From Psychrobacter sp. DM4 (GTDB taxonomy: Bacteria > Pseudomonadota > Gammaproteobacteria > Pseudomonadales > Moraxellaceae): DNA of 32,000 nt. The translations under genes were made by a program, and so were the position numbers. Below, piece after piece: positions 6,486 through 27,028 of the stretch. The notes beneath the pieces are model-generated. The model made no database searches, was not told the DNA's origin, and was given only the letters and a program-made list of their open reading frames with translations. Numbering within the stretch: the first letter of the stretch is position 1; each line of letters starts with the position of its first letter. The DNA is taken from assembly GCF_051307035.1 (NCBI RefSeq), contig NZ_CP195536.1:1110001-1142000 (forward strand). The letters are read 5' to 3'.

Positions 6486-7526
6486 ATGACACGCAATTTG
6501 TCAGCTCATTCACTCAAAGCATCGATAGTCATACTGGTTTTGGTATTACACGGCGCTACAGTGTGGGCGATGATGTCTATAGAAACGCCTACGCGCGCTG
6601 AGATAATACCTGTCACCAAACCGATTCAAATAGAGCTGATCACACTGGAGGCGGCTACGAAAAGTGTAAACACAGACTCAAAACTTGTCACGCCTATACC
6701 TGAAAACGTAAAAGTAGCCGAGCCTCAATCAACACCAAAGTCAGTTGCACCAAAACCAGCAGTCTTGCCAGCCAAAGACAAACCTGTGCTAGCAGTCAAA
6801 GAGTCTAATAAATCATTACAGATAGCTGATTCCAAGATAGAAGAAACACAAGATAATATATCATCAACGGATACTCCCAATACAGAGTCTAGCCAAGAGC
6901 GTACCTCTTCAGCGCTACAAAGTGCGACAATAACAGAGTCCAGAACTTCATCTAGCGATGCCACTCAAACAGAAGACTCCGAATTTGATCTTGCTGCTAT
7001 GATTAGAGCAATCAACGCGCAGCACAAGCGCGAGCAAGCAGAGCAGCGTCGGTCTTTGGCCAGACAGACCGATAGGAAGCTCAAACAGCAAGAAGAATGG
7101 CGATTACAGGCTGAGAATGAAACCATTACTAAGATGCTTGCTTTAGCGGCTGAGCAAGCCGCGCAGCAACAAGAAGATATGGACAAGGTTGATAAGTCAG
7201 TGACCAAAAGCGATGAGATAACGCCTTTTATCGCAGATTATGGCAGCTGGCAGGATGAACGCGAACCGATTACTAGCCTGTCTTCAGTTGTCTGGAGAAG
7301 TATCGATAGAGATTTGGGGGATGTATTTATCGTATTACTAGAGTTGCATGTCACTAAAGAGGGCGATATCACCGAGGTACAAATACTTGAGACGTCAGGT
7401 AGTCCAATCATCGATGCTATATCAACCACGCAAGTCAGAGGCGGGCAACTTAATCCAATACAACAACAAGGTATCAAGGTCGATGCTATTGTGCCGATGT
7501 CTTTGATATACGAGCGACCATCCTAA
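6486..7526 (+). CDS. TonB-like energy-transducer family protein with a long low-complexity/coiled-coil linker
   Basis: It has an N-terminal TM anchor (IVILVLVLHGATVWAMM), a Pro/Lys-rich stretch (PKSVAPKPAVLPAKDKP) and an S/T/Q/E-rich linker. The C-terminal roughly 80 aa resemble a TonB C-terminal domain (VTKEGDITEVQILETSGSPIIDA). Confidence 0.6.
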   Translation: MTRNLSAHSLKASIVILVLVLHGATVWAMMSIETPTRAEIIPVTKPIQIELITLEAATKSVNTDSKLVTPIPENVKVAEPQSTPKSVAPKPAVLPAKDKPVLAVKESNKSLQIADSKIEETQDNISSTDTPNTESSQERTSSALQSATITESRTSSSDATQTEDSEFDLAAMIRAINAQHKREQAEQRRSLARQTDRKLKQQEEWRLQAENETITKMLALAAEQAAQQQEDMDKVDKSVTKSDEITPFIADYGSWQDEREPITSLSSVVWRSIDRDLGDVFIVLLELHVTKEGDITEVQILETSGSPIIDAISTTQVRGGQLNPIQQQGIKVDAIVPMSLIYERPS

Positions 7527-7597
7527 CAACAGCTACGCCGCAATTAAGTGGTAAGGCAATGAGCTATGATTAAATAGTCTTTGCACATTGACAAAAT

Positions 7598-7632
7598 AAA
7601 AGCCCTGAACTCACAATGAGAACAGGGCTTTT
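7598..7632. terminator. Bidirectional intrinsic terminator between convergent genes
   Basis: AAAAGCCCTG (7598-7607) pairs with CAGGGCTTTT (7623-7632). A-rich and T-rich flanks lie on both sides. Confidence 0.7.
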
Positions 7633-7665: not shown

Positions 7666-8814
7666 CTAACCAAGCGCCCGCTCAAAGAACCACCATAGCG
7701 CAACAACTATGCTTATAAGCGATCCCAGATAAAAAATACCCCATTTATAAAACTGCGTATGACGCAGTATCAGGGCTAGCGGGAAAACAACGGCGATAAA
7801 TACCAGTTGCCCAAGCTCAATTCCGACATTGAAACTAAGAAGCGCTAGTACGCGGGCACTAGTCGCTAATGGCAAATCGACAAGGACATTGGCAAAGCCA
7901 AAGCCGTGAATCAGACCAAATACAAAGGCCAAATAGACGGCTCTAACTCTAAGTAACGGTACCAGATTGTTCAGCGCAGCAAAGGCAATAGATAGCGCAA
8001 TGATAGATTCAATAATTTGCGCAGGTATACTGACAACTTGCAAAGCAGCCAGGCTAAGCGTGATTGAATGCGCCAAGGTGAATGACGTTGCAATCCAAAA
8101 TACCTCTAATAGTGCTGATTTTGGTTTGCTCACCGCCACCAATTGTTTTTGTTTACGTATATACACCGCTGGTATTAACAATACAAACAAGAATAGCAAA
8201 TGATCCCAACCAATGAGCAAATGATGTATACCACTTTTTAAAAAGTTAAACGCCATAGCCAGCATGCCTGTATCAGCTTGCGAGCCAAGCGGACTTTGTC
8301 CCACTGACAATACCTGCAGTGAAGTATCGTCACTTGCTTCGGTCAACAGCAGACGGTGATTGGCATCAATACCTGCCAGTGTCTGATAGTCAAGATTATC
8401 TAAAGTAGAGGCACAGGCCACTTTAAAATCAGTATATAGATAATTGAAGCCGCCGCGAGTATTGATAGCTAAAGGCGCAAATGTGGTGACTTGGCAGGGT
8501 TGTCCTACGCTTTGCAAGCTAACTTGCGAGGCAATTAGCGCCTCTATGAGCGGCGCTTGTGCTTTAACCTCCGACCAACTCACTTCACTATCTTGGTTTG
8601 GGTCTATATCTATGAGCAGCGCTAAATCTCGTAGAGACAACTCATATTGAGCTGCGTACTGAGACTCAGAATCAATAGCATTTAAGTTCAAATAAGCGGT
8701 ACTAGACTCATGTGCTTGTACTAGAGTAGCTGTCATTGCAAGCAGCATTGTTAGCAGTGAGAGTATCAAATAGCGATAAGTGCGCCGCCAATGTAGTCCG
8801 TTATAAGTGCTCAT
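7666..8814 (-). CDS. Long-form HupE/UreJ-like membrane protein (periplasmic N-domain plus C-terminal permease domain)
   Basis: It has a signal peptide ending LVQA, a soluble domain of about 190 aa and then multiple TM helices. The TM region carries the HupE/UreJ-type motif GIHHLLIGWDHLLFLFVLL. Confidence 0.72.
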   Translation of the reverse strand: MSTYNGLHWRRTYRYLILSLLTMLLAMTATLVQAHESSTAYLNLNAIDSESQYAAQYELSLRDLALLIDIDPNQDSEVSWSEVKAQAPLIEALIASQVSLQSVGQPCQVTTFAPLAINTRGGFNYLYTDFKVACASTLDNLDYQTLAGIDANHRLLLTEASDDTSLQVLSVGQSPLGSQADTGMLAMAFNFLKSGIHHLLIGWDHLLFLFVLLIPAVYIRKQKQLVAVSKPKSALLEVFWIATSFTLAHSITLSLAALQVVSIPAQIIESIIALSIAFAALNNLVPLLRVRAVYLAFVFGLIHGFGFANVLVDLPLATSARVLALLSFNVGIELGQLVFIAVVFPLALILRHTQFYKWGIFYLGSLISIVVALWWFFERALG

Positions 8815-10001
8815 TAAGACTTATCCTTATTCATCGCTTGCGTCGCAGTACAGTTTAGACACTCCTCAATTTTGCCTAAGATTAAAGCGCGCTCAAGCGT
8901 AGGGTACTCAAACTGCGTATCGCTGATAAATTGACGAATAATGTTAATGTCCTTTTTGCTATCCGCTTTTATGGCAGTGGTTGCATATAGCACGATATCA
9001 GCGGTTTCGCGCTGCTGCTGCCAGTTGTCCTGCGCTAAGTTGAGCGCGTCATCATTTTGCTTAGCAAGCAGAGCGTACATTGCTTGCTCACGCGTGTGGG
9101 CTTTTTCGCCTCGCAATTGCCAAACGTCGATACGCTCTTTCATTAATGCAAGGTTTGCATCCGCTTTAGGGTCGCCCATCTTCATTTGCGCCTCGATAAG
9201 GCGCAGCAGCAGCGCGTCTTTATCGGTATGATTTTGTAGCAAATCGATTACTTGCTGGTATTTACCGATACTGAGTAACCAATCCGCGCGCGCCATCAGT
9301 GCTGGTACTGTTTGATCATCTATGACCGCAAACACTTGATTAGCAAGGGTGGTATCAGAGCTACGCAGGGCTGCATCTGCTTGAATTAAGTATATCCAAA
9401 GCGCGGTTGACGCATCTAAACGCGGCGCTAAGCTAGCAAGCGAATTGAGCGTCTGCTTAGCTTGACTTAGCTTCCCTGTCATGCTTTGAATTTGAGCGAT
9501 ACAGGCCGCCTGATACACCTCTAATGAAGGATCGTTTAGCTGGTCGCAATAATCCATAGCCTCATCGAACTGTCCTTGCACAACCAGCAGCGAGGATAGC
9601 GTTAATAAGGCATCTGGGTGCGCGGGGTCTTGATTGAGTATTTGCGCTAGTATCTCTTTTGCCTGAGTAAATCTATGGTCGGATTGGAGTGCTCGCGCTC
9701 GTAGCATCAGCGTCTCTATGCTTTGATCTTCGCTTTGATCTAATTGTGCGCGTGCTTGCCCGAGCGCGCGCGGGTCGCCTTCTAAATAAGCGCGTTCTAG
9801 TAGCTGCTTGGCATTGTCCGCACTATTAAGAGTAGTAGTGGCGGTTAGATCAGATACGCTGCTATAGCGAGGAGAGGGGGAGTCTGTTGGCAAAGTCTCA
9901 AGTATTTGCAAATCATCTGTCGGTATAAAGGGCGCAGCATATAATGGCTGGCTACTAAGTATTGCTAGTAGTAAGCCGATAGAGAGCTTGATCCATAGCA
10001 T
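8814..10001 (-). CDS. Secreted tetratricopeptide-repeat (TPR)-like protein
   Basis: It has an N-terminal signal peptide (LLLAILSSQPLYA|AP). The body is a helical repeat with recurring A/L/Q-rich 34-aa-like units. AAGGAG lies 8 nt upstream. Its stop overlaps the next ATG (TAATG). Confidence 0.7.
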   Translation of the reverse strand: MLWIKLSIGLLLAILSSQPLYAAPFIPTDDLQILETLPTDSPSPRYSSVSDLTATTTLNSADNAKQLLERAYLEGDPRALGQARAQLDQSEDQSIETLMLRARALQSDHRFTQAKEILAQILNQDPAHPDALLTLSSLLVVQGQFDEAMDYCDQLNDPSLEVYQAACIAQIQSMTGKLSQAKQTLNSLASLAPRLDASTALWIYLIQADAALRSSDTTLANQVFAVIDDQTVPALMARADWLLSIGKYQQVIDLLQNHTDKDALLLRLIEAQMKMGDPKADANLALMKERIDVWQLRGEKAHTREQAMYALLAKQNDDALNLAQDNWQQQRETADIVLYATTAIKADSKKDINIIRQFISDTQFEYPTLERALILGKIEECLNCTATQAMNKDKS

Positions 10002-10077: not shown

Positions 10078-10365
10078 CTATAAAGAAGCGTTAGCATCTT
10101 CAATAGCGATAGGCTCTGCCCGATTGGCTTCAGGCAATACAATACGATCTATGTCTTGCGGTTCGGCAGTGTTGACACCGTTTACATCTGGGCTAGCATC
10201 AATTACATCAGAGGTTCTATCTACTGCCAATTGAGCATTGTTTTGATCTCTTATCAGGTCATTATCAACCTGATTTTGAGTATCGAAATTATTATTATCA
10301 CTGTCGGAGCAACCAATAAGAGCAGCTGATCCGGCGAATACCATTGCTAAAAGTACATGGCGCAT
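10078..10365 (-). CDS. Small acidic Asp/Asn-rich lipoprotein
   Basis: The lipobox LIGC follows a hydrophobic leader (MRHVLLAMVFAGSAALIGC). I prefer the ATG at 10365 because AGGAG lies 7 nt upstream. The track ORF starts at 10371. Confidence 0.65.
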   Translation of the reverse strand: MRHVLLAMVFAGSAALIGCSDSDNNNFDTQNQVDNDLIRDQNNAQLAVDRTSDVIDASPDVNGVNTAEPQDIDRIVLPEANRAEPIAIEDANASL

Positions 10366-10392
10366 TGTCATTCTCCTTGAGTTAGCGTCAGC

Positions 10393-11907
10393 TTATCGAC
10401 TATCTGAATCTGAACCTGAGTTTCCACTACCAGCATTAGGGGTAGTTAGATAAGGGAACACTGAGTCAAAGTCATTCGCAGTTTTGAGAGTAGCGCGATC
10501 GGTGAGCAATGCTTTACCCGCTTTGGCATCAGCTGGTACACAAGTCACCGCAGCTGGTAGACCGGCGTGACACAGTGCACCCATAGAGACTCGAAGCGCA
10601 ATATCAGTTACATCATCACCCGGGCGTCGACCATTTGGAAATCCAGCAGTATCTACACCAGTACTAGGTCGTCCATCAGTTTGAACGCTTTGAATAAGAC
10701 TAAGTAGTCCTAAGTCGTTTTGATTGCCAGCGGCCACAGCAGCAATGTTGGTGTTTAAGCGCAACATGTCGGCTGGAACTTGATTGGCATTAGCAGGTTT
10801 GTTAACCGTTGGTACGCCCGTCAAAAACGCAGTCACAAGATCCTGACGTGGAAAGTTGGTCGGCGCAGGTGCTGCAAATAAAGTCTCAATAAGTTTTGGA
10901 AGCGTTGGATAAAAGACATAATCTTTAAAGTTTGCCACATCATCTTTTGGCTCTGAAGCATTGAACTTATCTTTGTCTTTTAGACCGATAACCACTTCAT
11001 TAACTAGCGGCATACCTAGTCGTGAAACTTGCGTCCAAGCGCCGCCTTTTTTGGCAGTAGTACTAATGCCTGAAGCAGGATTGCCATTTACCAAGGTTGC
11101 TTGACGCACACTTGCTGTCGTCCAAGCACCGATGACAGGGTCAGAACCAGCAACTAAACAAGCTTTTGGCACTTCCATTGCAATAGAGGTGACGTTCTTA
11201 TCTGCTAATATATTAGTTCCACCAGTACGCGACAGTGTAGGATCAAGATTAATTAGATCAAATACTTTACCTAGATCAATCGAAAAGCCTTCAGCACGTT
11301 GACCGACGAATACTTTACCCTTAGCATTACAGCCTGGAATGGTTAAATCGTTAATAAATCCTCTTGCATAAGTAGGGTAGTCAGCGAAAGATTTGGTACC
11401 AATATAATCAAACGGCTTATCAAAATTACCTAATGACGTACGGTTGCCACTACGGCGATCACCCTTGACCATGGTTACTTCATATTTTTCACTAGTTTGT
11501 AAATTATTTTTGATCGACGCATCACCAGCATTGGATAAAGGAATAGCGACTTTTGATGGACCGCCTGAATCGATCTCAATGCTATTTAGGTCTTGAGTAA
11601 AATCAAACTGAAAGGTGATATCTTCAACAGCATCGCCATCGTTATCGATGTGAATCTCATACAGCGCATCTGGGTCAAGAGCGAAATAATTAGGCCCGCC
11701 GTATGCATCCTGTAATGGCAGATAGTTTGCGATAATCGTGACGTAATCACTACGGTTGTTCTCGTAACTATTGAACATATAAAAGTCAGAGGCATCGACT
11801 TTTGGAGTTTTGGTAATTGAAGGGGCTTCGCGGTGACTTGAAGCGACTGCACTTGCACTCATGCTTAGAGCTATCGCTGCTATCAGTGCTTTTGTCGTGT
11901 GTTTCAT
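10393..11907 (-). CDS. Secreted DUF4331-like protein (uncharacterised family)
   Basis: The track ORF (to 12072) has an implausible N-extension. The ATG at 11907 has AAGGA upstream and yields the signal peptide MKHTTKALIAAIALSMSASAVA. The SSHREAPSITKTPKVDASDFYMF motif that follows is, as I recall, the hallmark N-terminus of DUF4331. Confidence 0.72.
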   Translation of the reverse strand: MKHTTKALIAAIALSMSASAVASSHREAPSITKTPKVDASDFYMFNSYENNRSDYVTIIANYLPLQDAYGGPNYFALDPDALYEIHIDNDGDAVEDITFQFDFTQDLNSIEIDSGGPSKVAIPLSNAGDASIKNNLQTSEKYEVTMVKGDRRSGNRTSLGNFDKPFDYIGTKSFADYPTYARGFINDLTIPGCNAKGKVFVGQRAEGFSIDLGKVFDLINLDPTLSRTGGTNILADKNVTSIAMEVPKACLVAGSDPVIGAWTTASVRQATLVNGNPASGISTTAKKGGAWTQVSRLGMPLVNEVVIGLKDKDKFNASEPKDDVANFKDYVFYPTLPKLIETLFAAPAPTNFPRQDLVTAFLTGVPTVNKPANANQVPADMLRLNTNIAAVAAGNQNDLGLLSLIQSVQTDGRPSTGVDTAGFPNGRRPGDDVTDIALRVSMGALCHAGLPAAVTCVPADAKAGKALLTDRATLKTANDFDSVFPYLTTPNAGSGNSGSDSDSR

Positions 11908-12243
11908 ACGTATCCTTGTAGAGAAACTAAAATAAGAGTGAAGTAAATTATTGAAACTACAGTGATTTTTATTATCAATAACCATAGTTGTTACAAAGTA
12001 TACCCTTAAATTTCTGTAGCTGTTTGTCTTTCTATCGGCAATATTGCTACGCTCGTCAGATGTTACAAACATTTACACTTTTGAGATACTTATACTCTGG
12101 TAGAAATTAATTAAGTTTTACTCGCGAACGTTGCAATCATAAACATTAACGACCGGTCTCATTCGGAATTAGAGGAGTGAACAAAGTGATTTGCACAATT
12201 CCTTCATCATTGGCAATAAACAATATATCTAAAGTCTGTTTTA

Positions 12244-13077
12244 TCAAAGTACATAAAGGTTGCTTTCAATATTATGTTTCATATGCAAGAGCCTTGGGGC
12301 GATATCCTCTTCAAGCGTTTTGCGACTCAGCACAAAACTTGGCGCGCCGCAATTAAAAGTGAGTAAGCCCTCAACGGGGTGCATAATAGCCGTAGCAACC
12401 GCATTGACATCCTTTTGCCAGTCCCCAAACGAAAAACAATACCCAAAGTCCTCAAAGTCTTTAAAGGCTAGATCTAAGCTACGTTTTATTTTTGACCAGT
12501 CTTTATCATGCTTACTCCGAATCGCATTCATAATAAAATCCTGTTCAGGGGTAGGCATGCTCGCTAGGCAGGCGCGTCCCATCGCACTAGAGTGCATAGG
12601 TAAATAGGAGCCGACATTACGGCGCATCGTTGTGGTACTAGAGCCTTGTACCACGTGAAGATAGACCATCATTAGCCTGTCACGAGTCGCCATGGCAACC
12701 GCACTACCAGCGTAGTTCGCAAGCTCCTCCATATGCGGCGTGACTAGATTGTTGATAGAGATGTTCGCCATCATCGTATAGCCAAAGCCTAATACGCCAA
12801 CCGCTAGCTGATATTTGCTACTTGTGGTGGATTGTTTTAGGTAGCCCAATTTGACCAAAGTATATGTTAGGCGCGTGATCGTGCCTTTAGGTAGACCCGT
12901 TAATTGGCTCAACTCTTGATTGCCGAGTAGTGGCTGCTGCGGAGTAAAACAGCGCAGTAGCTCAAGCCCGCGAGCAAGAGCGGTCACAAACTGCCGATCA
13001 CTCTGATCTCGCATTTGGGTCATAGGCTCAAGCAGCTCAAAGGATGCACTGCTAGGGGTCGTATCAGATATTGTCAT
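12244..13077 (-). CDS. IclR-family transcriptional regulator (PcaR/PcaU-like)
   Basis: The N-terminal wHTH region reads FVTALARGLELLRCF...ELSQLTGLPKGTITRLTYTLVKLGYL. A C-terminal IclR effector domain follows. Confidence 0.85.
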   Translation of the reverse strand: MTISDTTPSSASFELLEPMTQMRDQSDRQFVTALARGLELLRCFTPQQPLLGNQELSQLTGLPKGTITRLTYTLVKLGYLKQSTTSSKYQLAVGVLGFGYTMMANISINNLVTPHMEELANYAGSAVAMATRDRLMMVYLHVVQGSSTTTMRRNVGSYLPMHSSAMGRACLASMPTPEQDFIMNAIRSKHDKDWSKIKRSLDLAFKDFEDFGYCFSFGDWQKDVNAVATAIMHPVEGLLTFNCGAPSFVLSRKTLEEDIAPRLLHMKHNIESNLYVL

Positions 13078-13101
13078 AAAGAATTGTAGTCTTGGTTGAG
13101 T

Positions 13102-14256
13102 TTATTCACTGACTTCTCTGATCATATTACGAGCGATTATGATCTGCTGAATCTGCGTGGTACCTTCATATAGACGATACAGACGCACATCACGATAGAA
13201 ACGCTCGATACCATAATCTGCAATGTAGCCGGCACCGCCAAGAATCTGTACCGCTCTATCAGCAACGCGTCCACACATTTCAGTGGCGAACATCTTGCAA
13301 CAAGAGGACTCTGTAGCGACATCTTTGCCCTCATCACGCAGGCGTGATGCATCGAGCACCATAGATTTGGCCGCATAAATCTCCGCTTTTGAGTCCGCAA
13401 GCATCGCCTGAATCAGCTGGAAACTAGCAATAGGCTGACCAAACTGTTTACGGTCGACAGCATAACGCAAGGCATCATCGAGCATGCGTGTGGCTGCGCC
13501 CGTACTGGCAGCGGCAATATGTAAGCGCCCTTTATCAAGTACTTTCATCGCGGTCTTAAAGCCGACACCTTCAACACCGCCGATAAGTGCATCAGCAGGT
13601 ACGACGCAATTATCAAAGATAACATCGCAAGTATGCGCACCTTTTTGGCCCATTTTTTTATCCCATTTACCAAGCGTAATACCTGGGGTATCGCTCTCAA
13701 CGATAAACGCTGAGATACCGCCCGCCCGTTTATTCTCAGGATCGGTACGCGCCATCACGGTAAATATACCTGCTTCAGGCGCGTTAGTGATATAACGCTT
13801 GGTGCCATTTAGAACATAAGTATCACCATCTTTGATAGCAGTCGTTCTAAGGGAGGCCGCATCCGAGCCAGACTCAGGTTCAGTCAAACAAAACGAGCCG
13901 ATAATCTCACCGCTAGCGAGCCTAGGCAGGTACTTTTGTTTTTGTTCTTCAGTGCCGTCGATGACTAACCCTAAAGAGCCGATACCGTTGTTGGTACCGA
14001 TGAGCGAGCGAAAAGCGGGGGAGGTGCGTCCCATCTCAAAGGCGACGATGACCTCTTCTTCCATAGTCAGACCAAGACCGCCGTATTCTTCTGGAATAGT
14101 GAGACCGAATAATCCTAATTCGCGCATTTGACTGATGATGTCTTCTGGTAGACGATCGTTTTCGGCAACCCAATCCTCTTTAGGTATGAGCTGATCATTG
14201 ACAAATTGGCGAACGGTGTTGAGGATATGGTCGAGGACTTCTTGATCTCTAATCAT
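13102..14256 (-). CDS. Acyl-CoA dehydrogenase
   Basis: Full-length ACAD pattern (CLTEPESGSDA, YITNA, QFGQPIASFQ, catalytic-Glu region YEGTTQIQ). Confidence 0.92.
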   Translation of the reverse strand: MIRDQEVLDHILNTVRQFVNDQLIPKEDWVAENDRLPEDIISQMRELGLFGLTIPEEYGGLGLTMEEEVIVAFEMGRTSPAFRSLIGTNNGIGSLGLVIDGTEEQKQKYLPRLASGEIIGSFCLTEPESGSDAASLRTTAIKDGDTYVLNGTKRYITNAPEAGIFTVMARTDPENKRAGGISAFIVESDTPGITLGKWDKKMGQKGAHTCDVIFDNCVVPADALIGGVEGVGFKTAMKVLDKGRLHIAAASTGAATRMLDDALRYAVDRKQFGQPIASFQLIQAMLADSKAEIYAAKSMVLDASRLRDEGKDVATESSCCKMFATEMCGRVADRAVQILGGAGYIADYGIERFYRDVRLYRLYEGTTQIQQIIIARNMIREVSE

Positions 14257-14404
14257 GTGACTTCCTTGTCTGATGTGACTGAATAATGTAAATAGTTAGG
14301 ATTGGTCTTAGTACTAGCAATTGATTGCATAACTCATTGTTTTACATAAATGGCTTGTATGAGCTAAATAGCATAATCTATAATAAGGCAGATTACAACA
14401 ATTT

Positions 14405-14428
14405 CGGTTTTGAAAACCGCACTGCGGT
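14405..14428. promoter_or_regulatory. Two overlapping palindromes in the divergent ACAD / enoyl-CoA hydratase promoter region
   Basis: The palindromes are CGGTTTTgAAAACCG (14405-14419) and ACCGCAcTGCGGT (14416-14428). They lie 48-71 nt upstream of the hydratase ATG. Confidence 0.4.
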
Positions 14429-14475
14429 ATTTATTAGTACTATAGATTCGATGAATAACTAACAAGGATATCATT

Positions 14476-15252
14476 ATGGAAGAGTCAATAATCACTTGTG
14501 AGACCTTAGATAGCGGCGTGAGCGTAATAACCCTTAATCGTCCGAAAGTTCGCAACGCTTTAAACGCTGAGTTACGCGAGCAAATGGCAGAGATTTTTAT
14601 TCGATTAAACGATGACCCAAAGACAAAAGCCATTGTACTTACTGGTGGCGATAAAGTGTTTGCCGCTGGTGCGGATATCAATGACTTCTTGACCGCAAAG
14701 ACAGTCGATGTTTATTTGCGTCATAGCGAGCGCTACTGGGATGCTATCACTCATTGCCGCAAGCCCATCATCGCCGCGGTCAATGGTTACGCACTAGGCG
14801 GCGGCTGTGAGCTGGCTATGCACGCCGACATCATCGTCGCGGGCAAGTCAGCCAAGTTTGGACAACCTGAGATTAAAATTGGATTAATGCCAGGAGCAGG
14901 CGGTACGCAGCGGCTGTTTCGTGTGCTTGGCAAGCATAAAGCCATGAAGATAATATTAACGGGTGACATGATAACTGCTGAAGCAGCGGATCAAATGGGG
15001 CTGGTCTCTGAAGTGGTCGAAGATAAGACGACTATTAAGCGTGCTATTGAAATCGCGGAACAACTAGCAGGATATTCGCCGATTGCCTTGGCCCAAATAA
15101 AAGAAGTTGCTAATTTAGGCGTGGATATGCCACTACAAGCGGCGTTGGCTTTAGAGCGTAAAGCCTTTCAGATTTTGTTCGATACCAAAGATCAAAAAGA
15201 AGGCGCAAAAGCTTTTTTGGAAAAACGTGATGCGAACTATACAGGTCGGTAA
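14476..15252 (+). CDS. Enoyl-CoA hydratase (crotonase family, PaaF-like)
   Basis: Crotonase motifs are present (FAAGADI, NGYALGGGCELAM, GLMPGAGGTQRL, EGAKAFLEKR). Confidence 0.92.
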   Translation: MEESIITCETLDSGVSVITLNRPKVRNALNAELREQMAEIFIRLNDDPKTKAIVLTGGDKVFAAGADINDFLTAKTVDVYLRHSERYWDAITHCRKPIIAAVNGYALGGGCELAMHADIIVAGKSAKFGQPEIKIGLMPGAGGTQRLFRVLGKHKAMKIILTGDMITAEAADQMGLVSEVVEDKTTIKRAIEIAEQLAGYSPIALAQIKEVANLGVDMPLQAALALERKAFQILFDTKDQKEGAKAFLEKRDANYTGR

Positions 15253-15331
15253 AGTACTGAATACCGCATATAAATTTTGAAGACATAGCTAGGCAATAGG
15301 GCTATGCAACACGCGTATATAAAGGATTATT

Positions 15332-16909
15332 ATGACTGTTAAATCATCAGATATTCAATCGTTGGCCATTGTTGGCACGGGCATTATGGGCATGGGGATT
15401 GCCCAAATCGCAGCGCAAGCAGGGATTCAAGTAATGTTGTTCGATGCCAAATCAGGTGCTGCTGAGCAAGGACGCCAATCACTTCAAGCTATGCTCGAGA
15501 AACTAGCCGCTAAAGGTAAATTTACCGAGGAGCAGCTACAAGCGACTTTGGCTAATCTGATAGTGATTGAAGATATAGCCAAAGTTGCCAAAGTAGATAT
15601 CGTCATTGAAGCGATTATCGAGAATTTAGAAATAAAAAAACAGCTGTTTAAACAGCTAGAAAGCATTGTTCCTGCCGAAACAATTTTAGCAACCAATACT
15701 TCATCGCTCGCGGTAACCTCAATTGCTTCTGATTGCGAGCACCCAGAGCGCGTAGCAGGATTTCACTTCTTTAATCCAGTACCGTTAATGAAAATTGTTG
15801 AAGTGATTCCAGGGCTCTCTACTGACCACCGTGTTGTAGAGACGCTTACTGATCTAGCCAAACGCATGGGTCATCTAGGCGTCGTTGCAAAAGATACGCC
15901 AGGGTTTATTGTCAATCATGGCGGTAGAGCTTATGGCACAGAAGCCTTAAAAATACTAGGCGAGGGCGTGGCTAGTTTTGAGGACATTGATCGTATTTTG
16001 CGTGATGGCGCAGGTTTTCGTATGGGGCCGTTTGAGCTGCTCGATCTCACGGGTATCGATGTTTCACATCCCGTTATGGAATCAATTTATAATCAGTATT
16101 ACTTTGAGCCGCGCTATCGCCCGCATCCCTTGACCCGTCAAATGCTAGAGGGTAACAAGCTGGGCCGTAAAGTTGGTGAGGGCTTTTATCACTACATCGA
16201 AAACAAAAAACAAGACCGTCAAAAAGCGACCACTGATACGGCTAAAACATCATCCTACAAAACAGAAACTAATTTTGCAAACCTATCAGTTTGGATTGGT
16301 GCAGATCTAGCGGCGAATAAGCAAGAATTAGTTGATTATTTAGGTGCTAGTAACGTAACTATCGATGATAGTGATAAGCCAAACCCTGATAGTTTGGTGT
16401 TACTGGCAATTTATGGCGAGGATACCACCAACGCCGCCATCCGCTATCAGGTTAATCCAAAGCAAGCAGTCGCCATCGATATGCTAACGGACTTATCTCG
16501 TCATCGCACCCTTATGCCAAGTATCGTCACAGAGGATAGATTTGTAGCGCAAGCATATGCTCTATTTGGTAACAGCTCTGATGATACTATCGATGCTACG
16601 ATCATTACTGAAAGCACAGGCTTTGTGGCGCAGCGAGTCGTGGCTATGGTAATTAATTTAGGCTGTGATATTGCTATGCAAGGTATCGCCACACCAAAGG
16701 ATATCGACAATGCCGTCAAGCTTGGCTTAGGATATCCATATGGGCCTATCTCATGGGGTGACGCGCTTGGAGCCGAGCGTATTTTACTTATCTTAGAGCG
16801 TATTTATGGGTTAACCGGTGATCCGCGTTACCGTCCAAGTCCATGGTTGCAACGCCGTGCTAAACTCGGTATCTCCTTATTCACTCAGCAGCGCAATCGT
16901 GAACGCTAG
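15332..16909 (+). CDS. 3-hydroxyacyl-CoA dehydrogenase, long (525 aa) PaaH-like form
   Basis: It has an N-terminal Rossmann motif (VGTGIMGMGIAQ) and the HFFNP motif. The extended C-terminus appears to repeat the HADH C-terminal domain (GFVAQRV...LGLGYPYGP). Confidence 0.9.
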   Translation: MTVKSSDIQSLAIVGTGIMGMGIAQIAAQAGIQVMLFDAKSGAAEQGRQSLQAMLEKLAAKGKFTEEQLQATLANLIVIEDIAKVAKVDIVIEAIIENLEIKKQLFKQLESIVPAETILATNTSSLAVTSIASDCEHPERVAGFHFFNPVPLMKIVEVIPGLSTDHRVVETLTDLAKRMGHLGVVAKDTPGFIVNHGGRAYGTEALKILGEGVASFEDIDRILRDGAGFRMGPFELLDLTGIDVSHPVMESIYNQYYFEPRYRPHPLTRQMLEGNKLGRKVGEGFYHYIENKKQDRQKATTDTAKTSSYKTETNFANLSVWIGADLAANKQELVDYLGASNVTIDDSDKPNPDSLVLLAIYGEDTTNAAIRYQVNPKQAVAIDMLTDLSRHRTLMPSIVTEDRFVAQAYALFGNSSDDTIDATIITESTGFVAQRVVAMVINLGCDIAMQGIATPKDIDNAVKLGLGYPYGPISWGDALGAERILLILERIYGLTGDPRYRPSPWLQRRAKLGISLFTQQRNRER

Positions 16910-16992
16910 ATTGCTGATGCTAAGAGATAGACCAATTTAATAAACTTTATATGTTAATGATGCAAATTCTCTAAACACAACAAGGAAACGTG

Positions 16993-18195
16993 ATGTTAAA
17001 TGCTTATATATATGATGGATTAAGAAGCCCTTTTGGTCGCCATGGTGGCGCGCTTGCAACCGTGCGCCCTGATGACATGATCGCAACCGTGATAAAAGCT
17101 TTGGTTGAAAAGCACCAATTGCCCAGCGACATCTTTGATGAAGTACTCATCGGTAATACCAATCAAGCAGGGGAGGACTCACGTAACATTGCTCGCAATG
17201 CGGCACTGCTCGCAGGATTAGATGTCACAACGCCCGGTCAAACGGTCAATCGCCTATGTGCGTCAGGGCTATCTACGGTCATCGATGCCGCGCGCAGTAT
17301 CACTTGTCATGAAGGTGACATATTTTTGGCAGGTGGCGTTGAGTCCATGACCCGCGCGCCGTTTGTATTTGCGAAGACCGAGCAGCCCTTTAGTCGCGAC
17401 TTTAAAGTATTTGATACCACTATCGGCAGCCGCTTCCCCAATCCTATTTTGATCAAAGAGTTTGGTGGCGATAGCATGCCGCAAACCGGTGATAATGTCG
17501 CTCGCAAATATGGAATTACTCGCGAGCAAGCTGACAAATTTGCCGCCGCTTCGCAAGCGAAATACCAAGCCGCCAAACAATCAGGTTTCTTTGACGATGA
17601 AATAACACCAATTATGGTGTCGCAAGGTAAAAAGTTACCCAACAAAGCGATAGTGGAGGATGAGCATCCTCGCGCCAGCTCTACTGTGGAAGCACTGCAA
17701 AAGCTCAGACCATTAAATGAAAATGGCATAGTCACGGCAGGTAACGCATCAGGTATCAATGATGGCGCAGCGGCGCTTATTATTGGCTCAAAGCAAGCAG
17801 AAGAGCAGCTAGGCTTTAAGCCTATTGCCAAAATTCTATCCTCTGGCGCTATGGGGGTTGAGCCAAATATAATGGGCGTAGGCCCTGTTGAGGCGATTAA
17901 ACTGGCATTGAAACGTGCTGATTTGACCCTTGATGATATGTCCATCATTGAGATTAATGAAGCATTTGCATCCCAAGTACTAGGCTGCCTAAAAGGGTTG
18001 GATATTGATTTTGATGATAAGCGTGTTAATCCGAACGGCGGGGCGATTGCCGTTGGACATCCGCTTGGCGCATCAGGCGCTCGCATAGCGTTAAGTACCG
18101 CGCGCGAGCTACAGCGTACCGGCGAAAGATACGCGGTAGTCAGTTTATGTATTGGTATAGGTCAAGGGCTTGCTATGGTCATAGAGCGAGTATGA
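16993..18195 (+). CDS. Acetyl-CoA C-acyltransferase / 3-oxoadipyl-CoA thiolase-like (PcaF/PaaJ type)
   Basis: Thiolase motifs are present (NRLCASGL, NEAFASQ, GGAIAVGHPLGASG, CIGIGQG). The N-terminus is PcaF/PaaJ-like (RSPFGRHGGALATVRPDD). The ATG at 16993 has AAGGA 6 nt upstream. Confidence 0.92.
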   Translation: MLNAYIYDGLRSPFGRHGGALATVRPDDMIATVIKALVEKHQLPSDIFDEVLIGNTNQAGEDSRNIARNAALLAGLDVTTPGQTVNRLCASGLSTVIDAARSITCHEGDIFLAGGVESMTRAPFVFAKTEQPFSRDFKVFDTTIGSRFPNPILIKEFGGDSMPQTGDNVARKYGITREQADKFAAASQAKYQAAKQSGFFDDEITPIMVSQGKKLPNKAIVEDEHPRASSTVEALQKLRPLNENGIVTAGNASGINDGAAALIIGSKQAEEQLGFKPIAKILSSGAMGVEPNIMGVGPVEAIKLALKRADLTLDDMSIIEINEAFASQVLGCLKGLDIDFDDKRVNPNGGAIAVGHPLGASGARIALSTARELQRTGERYAVVSLCIGIGQGLAMVIERV

Positions 18196-21101: not shown

Positions 21102-21893
21102 TTACCCTTTGAAATCAGGCTTACGCTTTTCCATAAAGGCATTCACGCCTTCGACCATATTTTCTGTCTCAAATAGCTGCACCCATTGCTCAGCTTCAAT
21201 CTCTAAGCCTTTATCCAAAGTGGTTGCCATCCCTTCGTTGACAGCTATAATCGTTGCTTTGACAGATTCGGCGCTTTTGTTAAGAGCAATAGACTCAGCG
21301 AGTTTTTTGGTCTCATCCATCAATTCAGCGAGGGGCACTGATTTATTCACTAGGCCGATTTTTTCAGCCTCTTGACCACCGATAAATCGACCCGTCAGGA
21401 TTAGCTCCAAGGCTTTAGCTTTATTAATAATGCGGGCTAACCTTTGAGTGCCACCGAATCCAGGTATCAGACCTAGATTTAGCTCTGGCTGACCTAGCTT
21501 GGCTTCATCAGCGGCAAGACGCAAATGACAACTCATAGCAAGCTCTAATCCGCCACCCAAACAAGCGCCATTAATAGTGGCGATAACAGGCTTAGTGGAT
21601 GCCTCAATAGTATTCATAACGGCTTGAGCATCTTGTGATAGTTTTTTGCCTTTTTGAGCATCATTAAACGCTTTGGTGAACTCTTTGATGTCTGCACCAG
21701 CGACGAACATTTTACCTGTACCTGTTATGACGATTACCTTGACACTTTGATCAGCTTGCGCAGATTTAAAACATTCAGATAGTCCGTTAAGTGTAGTTGT
21801 ACTTAATGTATTAGCAGGTGGACTATTAATAGATATATAACCTACCTGATTTTCTACACTGAAATCGATATTTTCGAAAGTTTGATTTTGCAT
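21102..21893 (-). CDS. Enoyl-CoA hydratase (crotonase family)
   Basis: Crotonase motifs are present (FVAGADIKEF, NGACLGGGLELAMSCH, GLIPGFGGTQRL, EGVNAFMEKRKPDF). Confidence 0.9.
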   Translation of the reverse strand: MQNQTFENIDFSVENQVGYISINSPPANTLSTTTLNGLSECFKSAQADQSVKVIVITGTGKMFVAGADIKEFTKAFNDAQKGKKLSQDAQAVMNTIEASTKPVIATINGACLGGGLELAMSCHLRLAADEAKLGQPELNLGLIPGFGGTQRLARIINKAKALELILTGRFIGGQEAEKIGLVNKSVPLAELMDETKKLAESIALNKSAESVKATIIAVNEGMATTLDKGLEIEAEQWVQLFETENMVEGVNAFMEKRKPDFKG

Positions 21894-21949
21894 GGTGTTT
21901 TACCTTATTAAAGTTATGTTCAAAAAATTTTACTTATAAAAGACGACTG

Positions 21950-23440
21950 TTAAGTCGGCATAGAGAATTGCTTCTCTTCTCGCAATGCCGCACTAGGCCA
22001 GCGCTGCGTCACTGTTTTACGTCGAGTAAAGAATCTTACGCCATCTGGACCGTACATAGCCAAATCACCAAATAGTGAACGCTTCCAGCCGCCAAAGCTT
22101 TGCGATGCTACAGGTACGGGTAGTGGAATGTTGACGCCAACCATACCGACTTGAATAGTATCGATAAAATGACGCGCAGCTTCTCCGTCGCGAGTATAAA
22201 TACACGTGCCATTTCCATATTCATGGTCATTTATAAGCTGTACTGCCTCATCCATGGTCTGTACACGCATAACCTGTAAGACAGGACCAAAAATTTCGGC
22301 CTCGTAGCTGTGCATCTCTTTGGTGACATGGTCAATAAGAGTTGGACCCACAAAGAATCCTTGCTCGTAGCCTTCTGACGCGGCTTCAGAGCCGTCGATA
22401 ACGAGCTTGGCACCTTGATCGGTAGCACTTTTGATATGCTCTAGGATCTTCGATTTGTGTGCCTCTGTGATGACAGGGCCAAAGTCGTTGTGTTTATCTG
22501 AATGCACACCAAATTTGAGCGCTTCAATAGCAGGTTGCAATGCCGCAATCATTTTGTCAGCAGTCTCATCACCGACTGCAACGGCTACAGACAGCGCCAT
22601 ACAACGCTCACCTGATGAGCCAAAAGCGGCGCCTAAAAGTGATGTCACTACATTATCCAAGTCGGCATCCGGCATGACAATCGCATGGTTCTTTGCACCG
22701 CCAAGTGCTTGGCAGCGTTTGCCTTGTGCAGCGGCTGTCGTATAGATGTATTCAGCGATAGGGGTTGAGCCCACGAAGCTAACGGCTTTGACATCGGGAT
22801 GATGTAAAATAGCATCGACGGCTTCTTTACCACCATTGACGACATTGATGACGCCATCTGGCAAGCCCGCTTCTTGTAGCAGCTGCGCGATAAACAATGT
22901 GGCACTGGGATCACGCTCAGAGGGTTTTAGTACAAAGGTATTACCGCACACAATAGCCATAGGGAACATCCACAGTGGTACCATCACAGGGAAGTTAAAG
23001 GGCGTGATGCCAGCGACGACGCCTAGCGGATGAAACTCACTCCAAGAGTCGATATCAGTACTCACATTGCGACTGTGCTCGCCTTTGAGTAATTCAGGTG
23101 CGCCGCACGCATATTCAACATTCTCAATGCCGCGTTGTAGCTCACCTGCCGCATCATGAACGATCTTTCCATGTTCTTCGCCGACTAGTCTGCATATTTC
23201 AACAGCATTTTGCTCTAACAGTTCTTTGAATTTGAACATGACACGAGCGCGTTTTACTGGTGGTGTTTTGCTCCATGCTGGAAAAGCTGCTTTAGCCGCA
23301 GCAACCGCTTCGCCGATTGTTTTTTCACCGCCTAGTGCCACTTGTTTGCTGATGTCACCTGTGGATGGGTTGTAAACCTCTTGAGCTTGGCTGTCATTAT
23401 TGACTAGGCTGCCGTTAATAAAATGTCCGATCGTTTGCAT
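21950..23440 (-). CDS. mmsA: Methylmalonate-semialdehyde dehydrogenase (CoA-acylating)
   Basis: The N-terminus is MmsA-type (GHFING...YNP.TG...A..A.AAF..WS.TPP..RARVMFKF). The protein is 496 aa and has the ALDH catalytic region GERCMA. Confidence 0.92.
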   Translation of the reverse strand: MQTIGHFINGSLVNNDSQAQEVYNPSTGDISKQVALGGEKTIGEAVAAAKAAFPAWSKTPPVKRARVMFKFKELLEQNAVEICRLVGEEHGKIVHDAAGELQRGIENVEYACGAPELLKGEHSRNVSTDIDSWSEFHPLGVVAGITPFNFPVMVPLWMFPMAIVCGNTFVLKPSERDPSATLFIAQLLQEAGLPDGVINVVNGGKEAVDAILHHPDVKAVSFVGSTPIAEYIYTTAAAQGKRCQALGGAKNHAIVMPDADLDNVVTSLLGAAFGSSGERCMALSVAVAVGDETADKMIAALQPAIEALKFGVHSDKHNDFGPVITEAHKSKILEHIKSATDQGAKLVIDGSEAASEGYEQGFFVGPTLIDHVTKEMHSYEAEIFGPVLQVMRVQTMDEAVQLINDHEYGNGTCIYTRDGEAARHFIDTIQVGMVGVNIPLPVPVASQSFGGWKRSLFGDLAMYGPDGVRFFTRRKTVTQRWPSAALREEKQFSMPT

Positions 23441-23523
23441 AATGTGTTCCTTTAAACGTTTTGGTGATAGGGGGATTAAAAATTAATAAGGACTACCTAA
23501 GTTCGGTGTATCAGCTCTGTGTA

Positions 23524-24714
23524 TCAGCTCGGTGCATTTTCAACCGAGTTGGTGTCATCCCATAGCAAGGTATAAAGCTGAATCATCTCTTCTAAACTAG
23601 GTATGCGAGGGTTATTATTAGGTGACCCTGAGGCGAATGCTTGTTCACACATTGTATCGATGAGCTCATCAAAATCTGCTCTTTGTACGCCAAATTCAGC
23701 GAGTGTCGGCACCTGCAATTCTTTATTTAAGTCTTTCAGATAAGTAACCAAGCTCACGTTTGCCTGATCATCAGTTTCACTAGAATCGGATACGCCCAAT
23801 GCACGTGCACAGTCCGCATAGCGAGCAGGCGCACTAGAGATACCGAACTCCGTGATAGTTGGTAGCAACATCGCATTCGACAATCCGTGCGGCACATGGA
23901 AAAAGGCTCCAATTGGACGACTCATACCGTGTACCAGTGCGACTGAAGAATTACAGAATGCAATACCGGCTAAAGTTGAGCCTAGCATCATTGCCTCACG
24001 CGCCGTCTCGTCTTTGCCATCGTGATAAGCGGTTTGGATATTGGGTCCGATAAGGCGTAAGGCGGCGAGCGCCTGTTGGTCGCTGTAAGCATTACGTTTG
24101 GGGCTGATATACGCCTCAATAGCATGAGTCATCGCATCAATGCCCGTATCTGCCGTCGTGCGCGGTGGTACGCTCATCGTTAGACTGTAATCGATAATAG
24201 CTGCTACTGGCATAAATCCCATACCCACACACAACAGCTTCTCGTTATTAGCGTCATCGGTAATGATGGTAAAGCGGGTTACTTCTGAGCCTGTGCCTGC
24301 GGTCGTGGGTATCGCGACAATAGGTAAGCCTGCCTCGTTCACTTGACGAGGAAATTTATAATCACGCATGACACCGCCGAACTTTCCTAGGATAGAGATG
24401 GCTTTGGCGCTGTCGATAGGACTGCCGCCGCCCAAGGCAATGAGTCCGTCGTAGTCTTGAGCTTTTACTAGCGACACACCTGCCGCGATAGAGCTTTCGG
24501 TAGGCTCTGGCACAGTATCTGAGAAGACATCGGCCACGATATTCATCGCTTTGAGGATAGCTTGTACATTATCAACGTAACCCAGTTTAACCATCATCTC
24601 ATCAGTGACGATAAGAGGTCTTTTTATACCTAAGCTGTCCAATATTGCTGGTAGATTCTGACAAGCATCGCGTCCGATTTCCATGGTTCTTGGTAGCAAG
24701 ATACTGTGTGACAT
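23524..24714 (-). CDS. Iron-containing (group III) alcohol dehydrogenase family oxidoreductase
   Basis: Fe-ADH motifs are present (GGGSPIDSAKA, PTTAGTGSE, DAMTHAIEAY, His-rich metal site HGMSRPIG...HG). Confidence 0.88.
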   Translation of the reverse strand: MSHSILLPRTMEIGRDACQNLPAILDSLGIKRPLIVTDEMMVKLGYVDNVQAILKAMNIVADVFSDTVPEPTESSIAAGVSLVKAQDYDGLIALGGGSPIDSAKAISILGKFGGVMRDYKFPRQVNEAGLPIVAIPTTAGTGSEVTRFTIITDDANNEKLLCVGMGFMPVAAIIDYSLTMSVPPRTTADTGIDAMTHAIEAYISPKRNAYSDQQALAALRLIGPNIQTAYHDGKDETAREAMMLGSTLAGIAFCNSSVALVHGMSRPIGAFFHVPHGLSNAMLLPTITEFGISSAPARYADCARALGVSDSSETDDQANVSLVTYLKDLNKELQVPTLAEFGVQRADFDELIDTMCEQAFASGSPNNNPRIPSLEEMIQLYTLLWDDTNSVENAPS

Positions 24715-24832
24715 AATTACTCATCCTTGTATTAACAGCTATTAATAAGAGTTTAGGTAAGTCGGTTATTCATCGTACAAACCGCATATTTAAATGGCTG
24801 CTTAAGTGACTGATATCAACTTAATAAATTCG

Positions 24833-24920
24833 TATAACGATAAAAATATTATCGATATGTAAAATTTAACAGATTATATTTATAATAGCAAGACGCAAAA
24901 GAATTAGTTTTATCGTTATA
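24833..24920. promoter_or_regulatory. Operator-like inverted repeats in the divergent Fe-ADH / IclR promoter region
   Basis: The 13-bp arms are perfect, TATAACGATAAAA (24833-24845) and TTTTATCGTTATA (24908-24920). There is also a local palindrome CGATAAaaataTTATCG (24838-24854). Confidence 0.5.
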
Positions 24921-24968
24921 ATGAACACATTTATTCGCTAAGAATCAGTTAGAGATTTAGGGTAAGTC

Positions 24969-25739
24969 ATGAGCAATACTAAAAAGAAGGGTTCAAGCGT
25001 TGAGCGAGTACTACAAATAGTAGAGGTGCTTGCTGCCTCACAACGGCCATTAAGTGTCAGCGATTTAGCAGAAACGTTAGAAGTGCCTGTGCCTAGCATG
25101 TATCGGCTATTGGACCAGTTGCAAAGTCTAGATTTCGTTCAATTGGATCTGCCAGGAAAAGTCACTTGCGGAAAACGCACGTACAAGCTTGCCATGAACT
25201 TATTGCAAAACAATGGTTTCAAAAATGAAAGGTTAGCCATACTGAACGAGCTATCAGCAAAAATAGGAGAGACGGTCGGTATTGCGATTTTACAAGACTT
25301 AGATGTGGTTTATATCGACCGCGTCATGTCAGATTGGCCACTACAGATATTTTTGCCTTCTGGCACTCATGTTCCTGTCTGGGCCAGCGCCAGTGGTAAA
25401 TTGTTGTTGTCCCAGTTGTCGGATGAAAAATGCGAGCGCATCGTTGAAAAAATGTCATTACATGCACTAACGACTAAGACTCAGACCGATAAAAAGCAGC
25501 TCATACAAACGATTACCGCAACGCGCGAGACGGGAGTAGGCGTAGATAATGAGGAGTTCATTCCAGGTATGGTCGCCTGTGCTGTCATGATTCCAAATGG
25601 CGATCAACAAGCTTTTGCGACGATATTTACCCATGGTCCGACAGTGAGAAAAAGTCTAGAAGAGCTGCTTAGCTACGTGCCACTAATGCAAGAGGCGGCC
25701 AAAGAGCTGTCCGTTATCTTTAGTCAAGATTATGAGTAG
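24969..25739 (+). CDS. IclR-family transcriptional regulator
   Basis: The N-terminal wHTH region reads VERVLQIVEVLAAS...LSVSDLAETLEVPVPSMYRLLDQL. A C-terminal IclR effector domain follows. Confidence 0.85.
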   Translation: MSNTKKKGSSVERVLQIVEVLAASQRPLSVSDLAETLEVPVPSMYRLLDQLQSLDFVQLDLPGKVTCGKRTYKLAMNLLQNNGFKNERLAILNELSAKIGETVGIAILQDLDVVYIDRVMSDWPLQIFLPSGTHVPVWASASGKLLLSQLSDEKCERIVEKMSLHALTTKTQTDKKQLIQTITATRETGVGVDNEEFIPGMVACAVMIPNGDQQAFATIFTHGPTVRKSLEELLSYVPLMQEAAKELSVIFSQDYE

Positions 25740-26323: not shown

Positions 26324-26324
26324 T

Positions 26325-26897: not shown

Positions 26898-27028
26898 AGC
26901 TTAGTGATTTACTAAAGAAGTAGACACTTTACAACAGACACCCGTTAAATTTTTAAAACTCAAACAATGACGACATTATTTGGTATTAATTTTTATAAAG
27001 CTTTTGCCAATCGTCTTAAGGAATACCT

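Follow-up and report, generated by a model that had tools for sequence, protein, structure and literature searches.

The 32,000-nucleotide stretch of Psychrobacter sp. DM4 DNA analysed here (the window; positions 1,110,001 to 1,142,000 of contig NZ_CP195536.1) harbors, at 10393-11907 on the minus strand, a gene coding for a protein of the DUF4331 family, which heads a four-gene cassette embedding also the genes for a small lipoprotein, a periplasmic TPR protein, and a HupE/UreJ-2 permease. The best explanation of the data, to which we assign a probability of roughly 55%, is that the DUF4331 protein is the soluble metal partner of this permease, and that it carries at its processed N-terminus an ATCUN (amino-terminal Cu(II)- and Ni(II)-binding) motif (as defined in PMC12509749), the permease exposing in turn an N-terminal histidine (His1). 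The DUF4331 family probably handles Cu or Ni. It counts no fewer than 4,584 clusters (50% identity), distributed among many bacterial phyla and some eukaryotes, and has no known function or solved structure; no paper naming DUF4331, PF14224, or the SSHREAP motif was found in the searchable literature.

The DUF4331 gene and its export signal

The gene encodes a precursor of 504 residues, with a predicted mature form of 482 residues, whose translation opens with MKHTTKALIAAIALSMSASAVASSHREAPS (also given as MKHTTKALIAAIALSMSASAVASSHREAPSITKTPKVD). The protein is identical (100% over the full length) to the 504-residue "DUF4331 domain-containing protein" of Psychrobacter sp. DM4 at NCBI, and it matches the Pfam profile PF14224 (DUF4331) with an E-value of 9.2e-141 and 470 bits (cutoff 27), positions 1-421 of the 421 of the profile being aligned to residues 23-490. 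Hence, position 1 of the profile falls on residue 23, which is the first Ser after the A-V-A triplet discussed below.

The true start of the gene is the ATG at 11907, which lies downstream of a ribosome-binding site (AAGGA, 11913-11917, minus strand) read from the sequence. A longer open reading frame from 12072 (559 residues) amounts to just an upstream in-frame ATG and was discarded, since a start at 11907 agrees with the NCBI annotation, with the homologues, and with the ribosome-binding site.

Residues 1-22 (MKHTTKALIAAIALSMSASAVA; 11842-11907, minus strand) represent a predicted signal peptide, whose basic n-region (K2 and K6) is followed by the hydrophobic core ALIAAIAL and by a c-region closing with A-V-A. 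The cleavage was placed after A-V-A on the basis of the -3/-1 rule and of its conservation; AxA is the canonical signal peptidase I site in most bacteria (PMC3509430). Cleavage at this point would leave Ser23-Ser24-His25 (11833-11841, minus strand) as an ATCUN-type mature N-terminus, at the beginning of a tail corresponding to mature residues 1-13 (SSHREAPSITKTP; 11803-11841, minus strand), delimited by the confidence of the structural model and by conservation, in which S-S-H-R-E-A-P occupies positions 11821-11841. A preliminary description of this DNA had singled out the span 11821-11907 (residues 1-29 of the protein) and read there a signal peptide with an A-X-A end followed by SSHREAPS, with the His codon at 11833-11835; the translation of the window agrees with this reading in every detail, coordinates of the codon included. 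Two other export routes were considered for the protein and rejected: the signal peptide has no lipobox Cys, as a lipoprotein would have, and no twin-arginine motif, as export by the twin-arginine translocation (Tat) pathway would require.

Conservation of the X-X-His register

The same preliminary description had predicted that cleavage puts the His at mature position 3, had named the conservation of this register across DUF4331 as a point to check, and had assigned the His to the most recognisable conserved motif of DUF4331. These points were checked on an alignment of family members. An exhaustive HMMER search of cluster representatives at 50% identity retrieved 4,584 DUF4331 members at E ≤ 1e-3; from the best 150 of these 4,584, the 121 sequences with an intact N-terminus (mutual identity ≤50%) were aligned by anchoring them on a separate downstream motif, D-x-x-D-x-[YF]-x-F, located 13 residues past the His.

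According to this alignment, the conservation goes well beyond chance, as His is present in 118 of the 121 representatives. The residue preceding it (position -1 from His) is Ser in 113 sequences, Asp in four, and Gly in four, and position -2 is Ser in 111 and Ala in seven. Position -3 is occupied by Ala (103), Gly (11), or Ser (2), for a total of 116 Ala/Gly/Ser; position -4 varies, frequently with a bulky residue (L, S, Q, G, H, A, F, Y); position -5 is again small or aliphatic in 119 sequences (A 70, V 20, S 9, L 7, T 5, G 5, I 3). Moving further upstream, P, G, T, and A are abundant at positions -6 to -8, and positions -9 to -12 are hydrophobic. This pattern is that of a textbook signal peptidase I site, predicted to lie two residues ahead of the His. 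Such a small-x-small site occurs at a constant distance from the His, which would therefore be found at mature position 3, in 113 out of 121 representatives, and 79/80 genome loci share this register; the length of the signal peptide differs among members (median 26), and the spacing to the His is fixed. Moreover, Pro was never found at mature positions 1 and 2 (0/121), as the deprotonation of the backbone amides in an ATCUN complex demands.

Recounting the His in other sets gave the same result: it is present in 112/112 close relatives, in 119/119 profile hits, and in 80/80 species-level loci (79 SSH and one ASH). The latter set is weighted to a subfamily with 52-84% identity, with distant clades sampled singly; the loci were scanned with an alignment of closer relatives (A2), the diverse alignment (A1) being too divergent for scanning. 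Among 99 diverse sequences, the residues conserved in at least 90% are S23, S24, H25, E27, A28, P29, and P35; in these sequences His25 is the sole near-invariant His of DUF4331, and no Cys is conserved. Overall, the three points stand, and neither of the two computational grounds for refutation named in that description (a different predicted cleavage site, or a register lost among homologues) applied: the His would be the third residue of the mature protein, as predicted from the -3/-1 rule, the register is kept in bacterial and eukaryote-type members alike, even where the processing site is a different one (see below), and the His belongs to the best conserved motif, which includes S23, S24, E27, A28, and P29.

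A second cleavage site has to be considered, since A-S-S followed by His also satisfies the -3/-1 rule (Ala at -3, Ser at -1), and in some taxa Ser is accepted at -1 (PMC3509430). Cleavage there would give a protein beginning with His, that is, a histidine-brace protein like the permease partner, CopC, YcnI, DUF4198, and lytic polysaccharide monooxygenases (LPMOs), and the metal-tipped partners encoded in the operons do all use a His in position 1. We regard this reading as very unlikely: it gives no reason why a small or aliphatic residue should be conserved at -5 and why position -4 should vary, and it would entail an unusually long c-region, of ten residues in the window protein. The exceptions to the Ser-Ser consensus speak on the same point. 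Ser-Ser is replaced by AS, AG, SG, GG, SD, RD, or LD, and two residues still separate the -1 Ala from the His. Four members have Asp directly before the His (the SDH, RDH, and LDH variants); therefore, in these variants cleavage directly before the His is impossible. Furthermore, two eukaryote-type members (P0222 and P0214) lack a signal peptidase site at this point and have instead ...SSKR|SSH and ...ISPR|SSH, which a His1 end does not fit; their basic KR| and PR| pro-peptide sites would likewise free Ser-Ser-His.

The His itself is missing in 3 of the 121 representatives, and both copies that could be placed are tandem duplicates lying beside canonical ones (ALAGA|SSHRDSP and HAEA|SSHREAP). 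For two members with Pro at -3 from the His no explanation was found.

DUF4331 genes often occur in tandem or divergent pairs (L091, 3712-6994; L092, 3269-6195; L087, 16-3094; L022), one of the paired partners having an additional CHRD domain; this suggests either hetero-oligomers or degenerate duplicates. A subgroup of eukaryote-type sequences is marked by S-S-H-S-E-A-P-G-T-A and by signal peptides that are short and eukaryotic in style. One of them (P0161) comes from the amoebozoan Clydonella sp., and a contig on which a member is encoded (L086) has a eukaryotic look: its genes are sparse, and ankyrin repeats and PARP occur among them.

Structure of the DUF4331 protein

In the AlphaFold2 model, the core of the protein is confidently predicted (predicted template modelling score 0.83), and mature residues 1-13 have a predicted local distance difference test (pLDDT) score below 50. 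In this model Ser-Ser-His would be free to form the planar 5,5,6 chelate typical of ATCUN ends. The tip, the best conserved segment of the protein, is predicted to be flexible, in keeping with the freedom that a wrap-around chelating end needs. The body of about 480 residues contains dozens of invariant positions, many of them Arg, Asp, Asn, and Trp; neither sequence search nor fold comparison retrieved a solved relative of DUF4331.

The same data can be read in a different way, i.e., the S-S-H-R-E-A-P-x-I tail might be a docking peptide, a strand completing a partner, or part of an active site, the X-X-His being incidental. Indeed, seven consecutive residues are conserved rather than the His alone, the body is large, with Arg, Asp, Asn, and Trp prominent among its invariant positions, and the tail is left unplaced by AlphaFold, as expected for a segment that becomes ordered only on its partner. 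A TPR protein is encoded in the DUF4331 operon, and proteins of this kind usually recognise short peptides in extended form. A docking peptide, however, would not need a fixed distance to a free N-terminus, yet the predicted site is always two residues before the His; in the TPR partner, the spacing between the signal peptide (as located with a crude signal-peptide caller) and the first conserved motif varies. In addition, S-S-H is retained at loci devoid of a TPR gene (L085, L088, and L064) and, more generally, at loci and in eukaryote-type members that do not have the TPR and HupE partners; therefore, the tip would serve DUF4331 itself and no single partner. On these grounds we consider the docking or active-site reading rather unlikely.

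Loops of the D-x-D-x-D-G type, which may be structural calcium sites, were observed both in DUF4331 (HIDNDGDAVED; 11620-11652, minus strand) and in the periplasmic domain of the permease (IDPNQDSEVSWSE; 8569-8607, minus strand).

The permease partner

The last gene of the cassette (7666-8814, minus strand; 382 residues) codes for a HupE/UreJ-2 permease (Pfam PF13795, E-value 1.9e-43), as the preliminary description had recognized; the link between the two proteins is strengthened by the N-terminal domain of the permease, which begins with a His of its own. Its signal peptide (8713-8814) ends with ...TLVQA and is directly followed by HESSTAYL, so that His1 (residue 35) is encoded at 8710-8712; a periplasmic domain (about 8230-8712) precedes the transmembrane HupE_UreJ_2 region (residues 191-353). 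This His1 is invariant in 55 homologues, and A-x-A|H was found in about 50 out of 57 permease partners at the genome loci.

The model of the permease has a pLDDT of 90, and the top match of Foldseek in PDB is 9GCE, the Cu-bound RbAng-1a, which is the Ang-1 domain of a HupE/UreJ-2 protein (E-value 4e-5, probability 1.00, template modelling score 0.60 on the target, 167 columns, 12% identity). The match was not reached by phmmer or by a 21-sequence profile of the periplasmic domain, which retrieved from PDB weak EF-hand-like matches to the calcium-type loop. According to the fold, the window permease is a distant member of the Ang-1 type. The name "anglerase" was introduced for Ang-1 in 2025; it is a periplasmic domain proposed to feed the permease, and RbAng-1a was shown by experiment to bind, by way of its N-terminal His, Cu with a dissociation constant of about 74 nM and Ni with one of about 220 nM, and its His1 site is a "mono-histidine brace" of two to three ligands, in which extra ligands are needed (PMC12537917). 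DUF4331 is not discussed in that work, apart from two counts in a supplementary table of neighbours (PMC12537917).

The need of the His1 brace for additional ligands (PMC12537917) would be in agreement with a further possibility, namely that the DUF4331 tip binds metal without being a classical ATCUN. In this case, the free amine would form with His3, and possibly with the help of Glu5 or of Ser hydroxyls, a lower-affinity, exchangeable site, maybe shared with His1 of the permease and tuned for hand-over, and the metal could also be Co, Zn, or Fe. Glu5 (E27) is conserved like His3, and Ser1 and Ser2 are nearly invariant, neither of which an ATCUN requires; moreover, next to 9GCE, the partner is most similar in fold to the zinc-binding ZrgA and PA4063. 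On the other hand, all the sequence features that define an ATCUN end are present in the predicted DUF4331 tip, with no sequence bar to deprotonating the amides of residues 2 and 3, and the pairing with NicO, DUF4198, and HupE (see below) indicates Ni or Cu over Zn or Fe. Such a non-classical site appears unlikely to us.

The cassette in other genomes

The DUF4331-lipoprotein-TPR-HupE_UreJ_2 cassette is shared by 53 of the 80 species-level loci, and seven more are truncated right after the DUF4331 gene. It was found in Gamma- and Betaproteobacteria, Nitrospirota, and Myxococcota (metagenome-assembled genomes, MAGs), including Nitrospira tepida and Duganella. At no fewer than 56 of the 80 loci DUF4331 is followed by a gene for a TPR homologue, and at most loci a lipoprotein of 70-106 residues with similar features is encoded between the two.

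TonB-dependent receptors are present at 20/80 loci; in Acinetobacter one of them is encoded directly after the TPR gene, and in Nitrospira tepida the NikR, TonB, and receptor genes are adjacent, with a TonB_C gene after HupE. In two cases, a betaproteobacterial MAG (L064) and an OLB16 MAG (L088; partial gene, E-value 6e-4), the gene directly downstream of DUF4331 encodes DUF4198. Lastly, in a Candidatus Dormibacteraeota MAG (L085) an extracytoplasmic function (ECF) sigma factor gene and DUF4331 are followed by a gene (8386-9744) for a NicO-family Ni/Co permease (35.5 bits, cutoff 27.7), whose predicted signal peptide ends with ...PVLA and is followed by HPLGNFTVNRF. Hence, a His1 appears on a second permease family, and N-terminal-His proteins recur as neighbours of DUF4331.

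The same NicO permease has an N-terminal extracytoplasmic domain with an HHHDHDHEH loop, resembling an "anglerase-like" fusion, and SurA-like and sortase genes lie after it. In some lineages a globin gene is located just upstream of the cassette (L001, 7044-7964; L003, 3447-3920; several Comamonadaceae loci), the Nitrospira globin being fused to a cytochrome P460 domain; pairs of ECF sigma and anti-sigma factors likewise precede the cassette in some lineages.

Proposed function of the DUF4331 tip

On the basis of these data, we can depict the following scenario. DUF4331 would be exported by the Sec pathway and cut by signal peptidase I after A-V-A, so that Ser-Ser-His, bearing a free amine, would open the mature chain and form the tip of a flexible tail about 13 residues long. 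The alpha-amine, two backbone amides, and the imidazole of His3 might wrap Cu(II) or Ni(II) in one plane, and the protein, as the soluble partner of a four-gene envelope system, would capture scarce Ni or Cu in the periplasm. The metal might then be passed to, or buffered for, the N-terminal-His site of the permease and transported across the inner membrane, with the TPR protein and the lipoprotein serving as putative scaffolds; in some species, a TonB-dependent receptor would first carry the metal over the outer membrane.

Several observations weigh against this scenario. Firstly, conservation exceeds what chelation calls for: the near-invariance of Ser1, Ser2, Arg4, Glu5, Ala6, and Pro7 implies further constraints (for example docking, catalysis, or another type of coordination), and, since the strict Ser-Ser and Arg-Glu-Ala-Pro go beyond the needs of an ATCUN, the tip is likely to have a role beyond chelation. 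Likewise, the large body, with its many invariant residues and unmatched fold, is more than a simple chaperone needs. Secondly, classical ATCUN sites bind Cu(II) very tightly and in a redox-inert form, which suits sequestration over hand-over. Thirdly, the regulatory context is not that of a known metal regulon. NikR is absent from 80/80 other loci and was seen only in Nitrospira tepida; therefore, nickel cannot be inferred from it. The commonest nearby regulators are ECF pairs (sigma factors at about 29/80 loci and RskA- or ChrR-type anti-sigma factors at about 28/80) and not known metal sensors. Upstream of the window cassette, inspection by eye revealed no convincing Fur, Zur, or NikR box and none common to Moraxellaceae, the upstream regions of the related Moraxellaceae being too divergent for footprinting, and no Rfam riboswitch match was found in the window. 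Given that the regulators are mostly ECF and that neither a metal box nor a riboswitch was detected, the assignment of the metal, and even that of the import direction (uptake rather than sequestration), is tentative. Finally, cleavage after A-S-S is formally allowed, and searches of the literature and of structures retrieved no measured N-terminus or metal binding for any DUF4331 protein.

If the ATCUN reading is correct, the recent approach of discovering metalloproteins by a His exposed at signal-peptide removal would widen from His1 to X-X-His, and DUF4331 would represent the missing soluble partner of the anglerase permeases, within a compact envelope system that acquires or buffers Ni or Cu where these are limiting for key enzymes (such as urease, Ni-dependent enzymes, and, in nitrifiers and denitrifiers, copper enzymes). 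The idea is put forward as a strong hypothesis that is cheap to test.

A broader version can also be proposed, in which DUF4331 founds a widespread class of exported X-X-His shuttles that relay Ni(II) or Cu(II) to the His1 of HupE/UreJ-2, NicO, or DUF4198 proteins, as part of a new TonB-linked import route, and whose secreted eukaryotic homologues share the tip. Nitrifiers and Acinetobacter would be among the thousands of bacteria that have this route; we put it forward tentatively, and on balance we doubt it.

Comparison with known systems

ATCUN motifs are exemplified by human serum albumin (DAH), the ectodomain of hCtr1 (MDH), histatin-5 (DSH), hepcidin (DTH), and Helicobacter Hpn (MAH). 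DUF4331 would share with these proteins the NH2-X-X-His arrangement, the lack of Pro at positions 1 and 2, and a flexible end; it would differ from them in that the tip is made by removal of a signal peptide, occurs family-wide on proteins of about 480 residues, and is part of a fixed S-S-H-R-E-A-P, and in that it is known here from sequence. The nearest functional analogue is hCtr1, the human copper importer, in which the motif is likewise outside the cytoplasm and beside a membrane metal permease, whereas DUF4331 has no adjacent cluster of His or Met residues.

In the histidine-brace copper proteins (CopC, YcnI, PCuAC-like proteins, and LPMOs) and in the Ni-hook of nickel superoxide dismutase (Ni-SOD), a processed N-terminus provides an alpha-amine ligand, as proposed here for DUF4331. 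Those proteins, however, have the His at residue 1 and draw additional ligands from a folded domain, whereas in DUF4331 the His would be the third residue of an apparently unstructured tail. CopC and Ni-SOD are also mentioned in the anglerase study (PMC12537917).

Within bacteria, the His1-tipped anglerases and DUF4198 are the nearest functional analogues. The anglerases (Ang-1 or Ang-2 with HupE/UreJ-2; PMC12537917, 9GCE) resemble DUF4331 in the shared operon and in the amine and His that cleavage would expose in the periplasm; they have a His1 on a small immunoglobulin-like fold tethered to the permease, in contrast to the His3 of DUF4331, which is large, soluble, and of an unrelated fold. 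DUF4198 is a secreted, periplasmic protein with an N-terminal His and measured nickel binding, linked to TonB-dependent receptors and NikR (PMC12537917). It is comparable to DUF4331 in its location and in its cleavage-exposed N-terminal His, besides being adjacent to it at the two loci mentioned above; the families are unrelated, the His of DUF4198 is at position 1, and nickel binding by DUF4331 is putative. With respect to all these systems, the new elements would be an X-X-His tip generated by signal-peptide removal and conserved family-wide in bacteria and eukaryotes, its presence on a soluble protein of unmatched fold, and its genetic coupling to His1 permeases of two unrelated families.

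Organization of the cassette in the window and flanking genes

The DUF4331, lipoprotein, TPR, and permease genes are predicted to constitute a single transcription unit; no terminator-like site was detected on the minus strand within the cassette by a terminator scan. The lipoprotein (10078-10371, minus strand; 97 residues) has a lipobox, LIGC, with Cys21 encoded at 10309-10311, followed by a low-complexity linker and, near the C-terminus, by two acidic [DE]-x-x-E-P motifs (T-A-E-P-Q-D-I-D and R-A-E-P-I-A-I); it has no family match in Pfam or NCBIfam. The x-E-P motifs are a faint echo of the R-E-A-P of the DUF4331 tip. The TPR protein (8814-10001, minus strand; 395 residues; Pfam TPR_19, E-value 7.7e-14) is predicted to be periplasmic, with a signal peptide (MLWIKLSIGLLLAILSSQPLYA) followed by APFIP, and the stop codon of its gene overlaps the start of the permease gene (TAATG).

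After the stop codon of the permease gene, a hairpin with T-runs (AAGCCCTG...CAGGGCTTTTATTTT, also given as AAAAGCCCTG...CAGGGCTTTTATTTT) was read from the sequence at 7593-7632. Its T-runs flank the hairpin, which lies between the permease gene and a convergent gene for a TonB-like protein, and it looks like a bidirectional terminator; the terminator scanner passed over it, its loop being longer than 8 nucleotides. The TonB-like protein (6486-7526, plus strand; 346 residues) matches Pfam TonB_C with an E-value of 2.1e-5 and 25.3 bits (cutoff 24.6). Its gene adjoins the cassette in 3/3 other Psychrobacter loci, and the protein is a probable accessory component.

The intergenic region upstream of the DUF4331 gene (11908-12243, minus strand) represents the putative promoter region of the cassette. 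A TAGTTTA..TT.A-like element located about 40-100 nucleotides upstream of the start is common to the Psychrobacter loci (including L004-L006). Within 11908-12100 (minus strand), a repeated TGTAACA (the repeat being given as TTTGTAACA) and a weak Fur-like stretch (GATAATAAAAATCAC) were also observed.

The flanking regions (12244-18195 and 21102-28531) harbor unrelated genes of fatty-acid and aldehyde catabolism, coding for an acyl-CoA dehydrogenase, enoyl-CoA hydratases, a 3-hydroxyacyl-CoA dehydrogenase, a thiolase, aldehyde dehydrogenases, and an Fe-alcohol dehydrogenase, together with two IclR regulators. The IclR gene at 12244-13077 is probably part of this catabolic cluster and not of the metal cassette.

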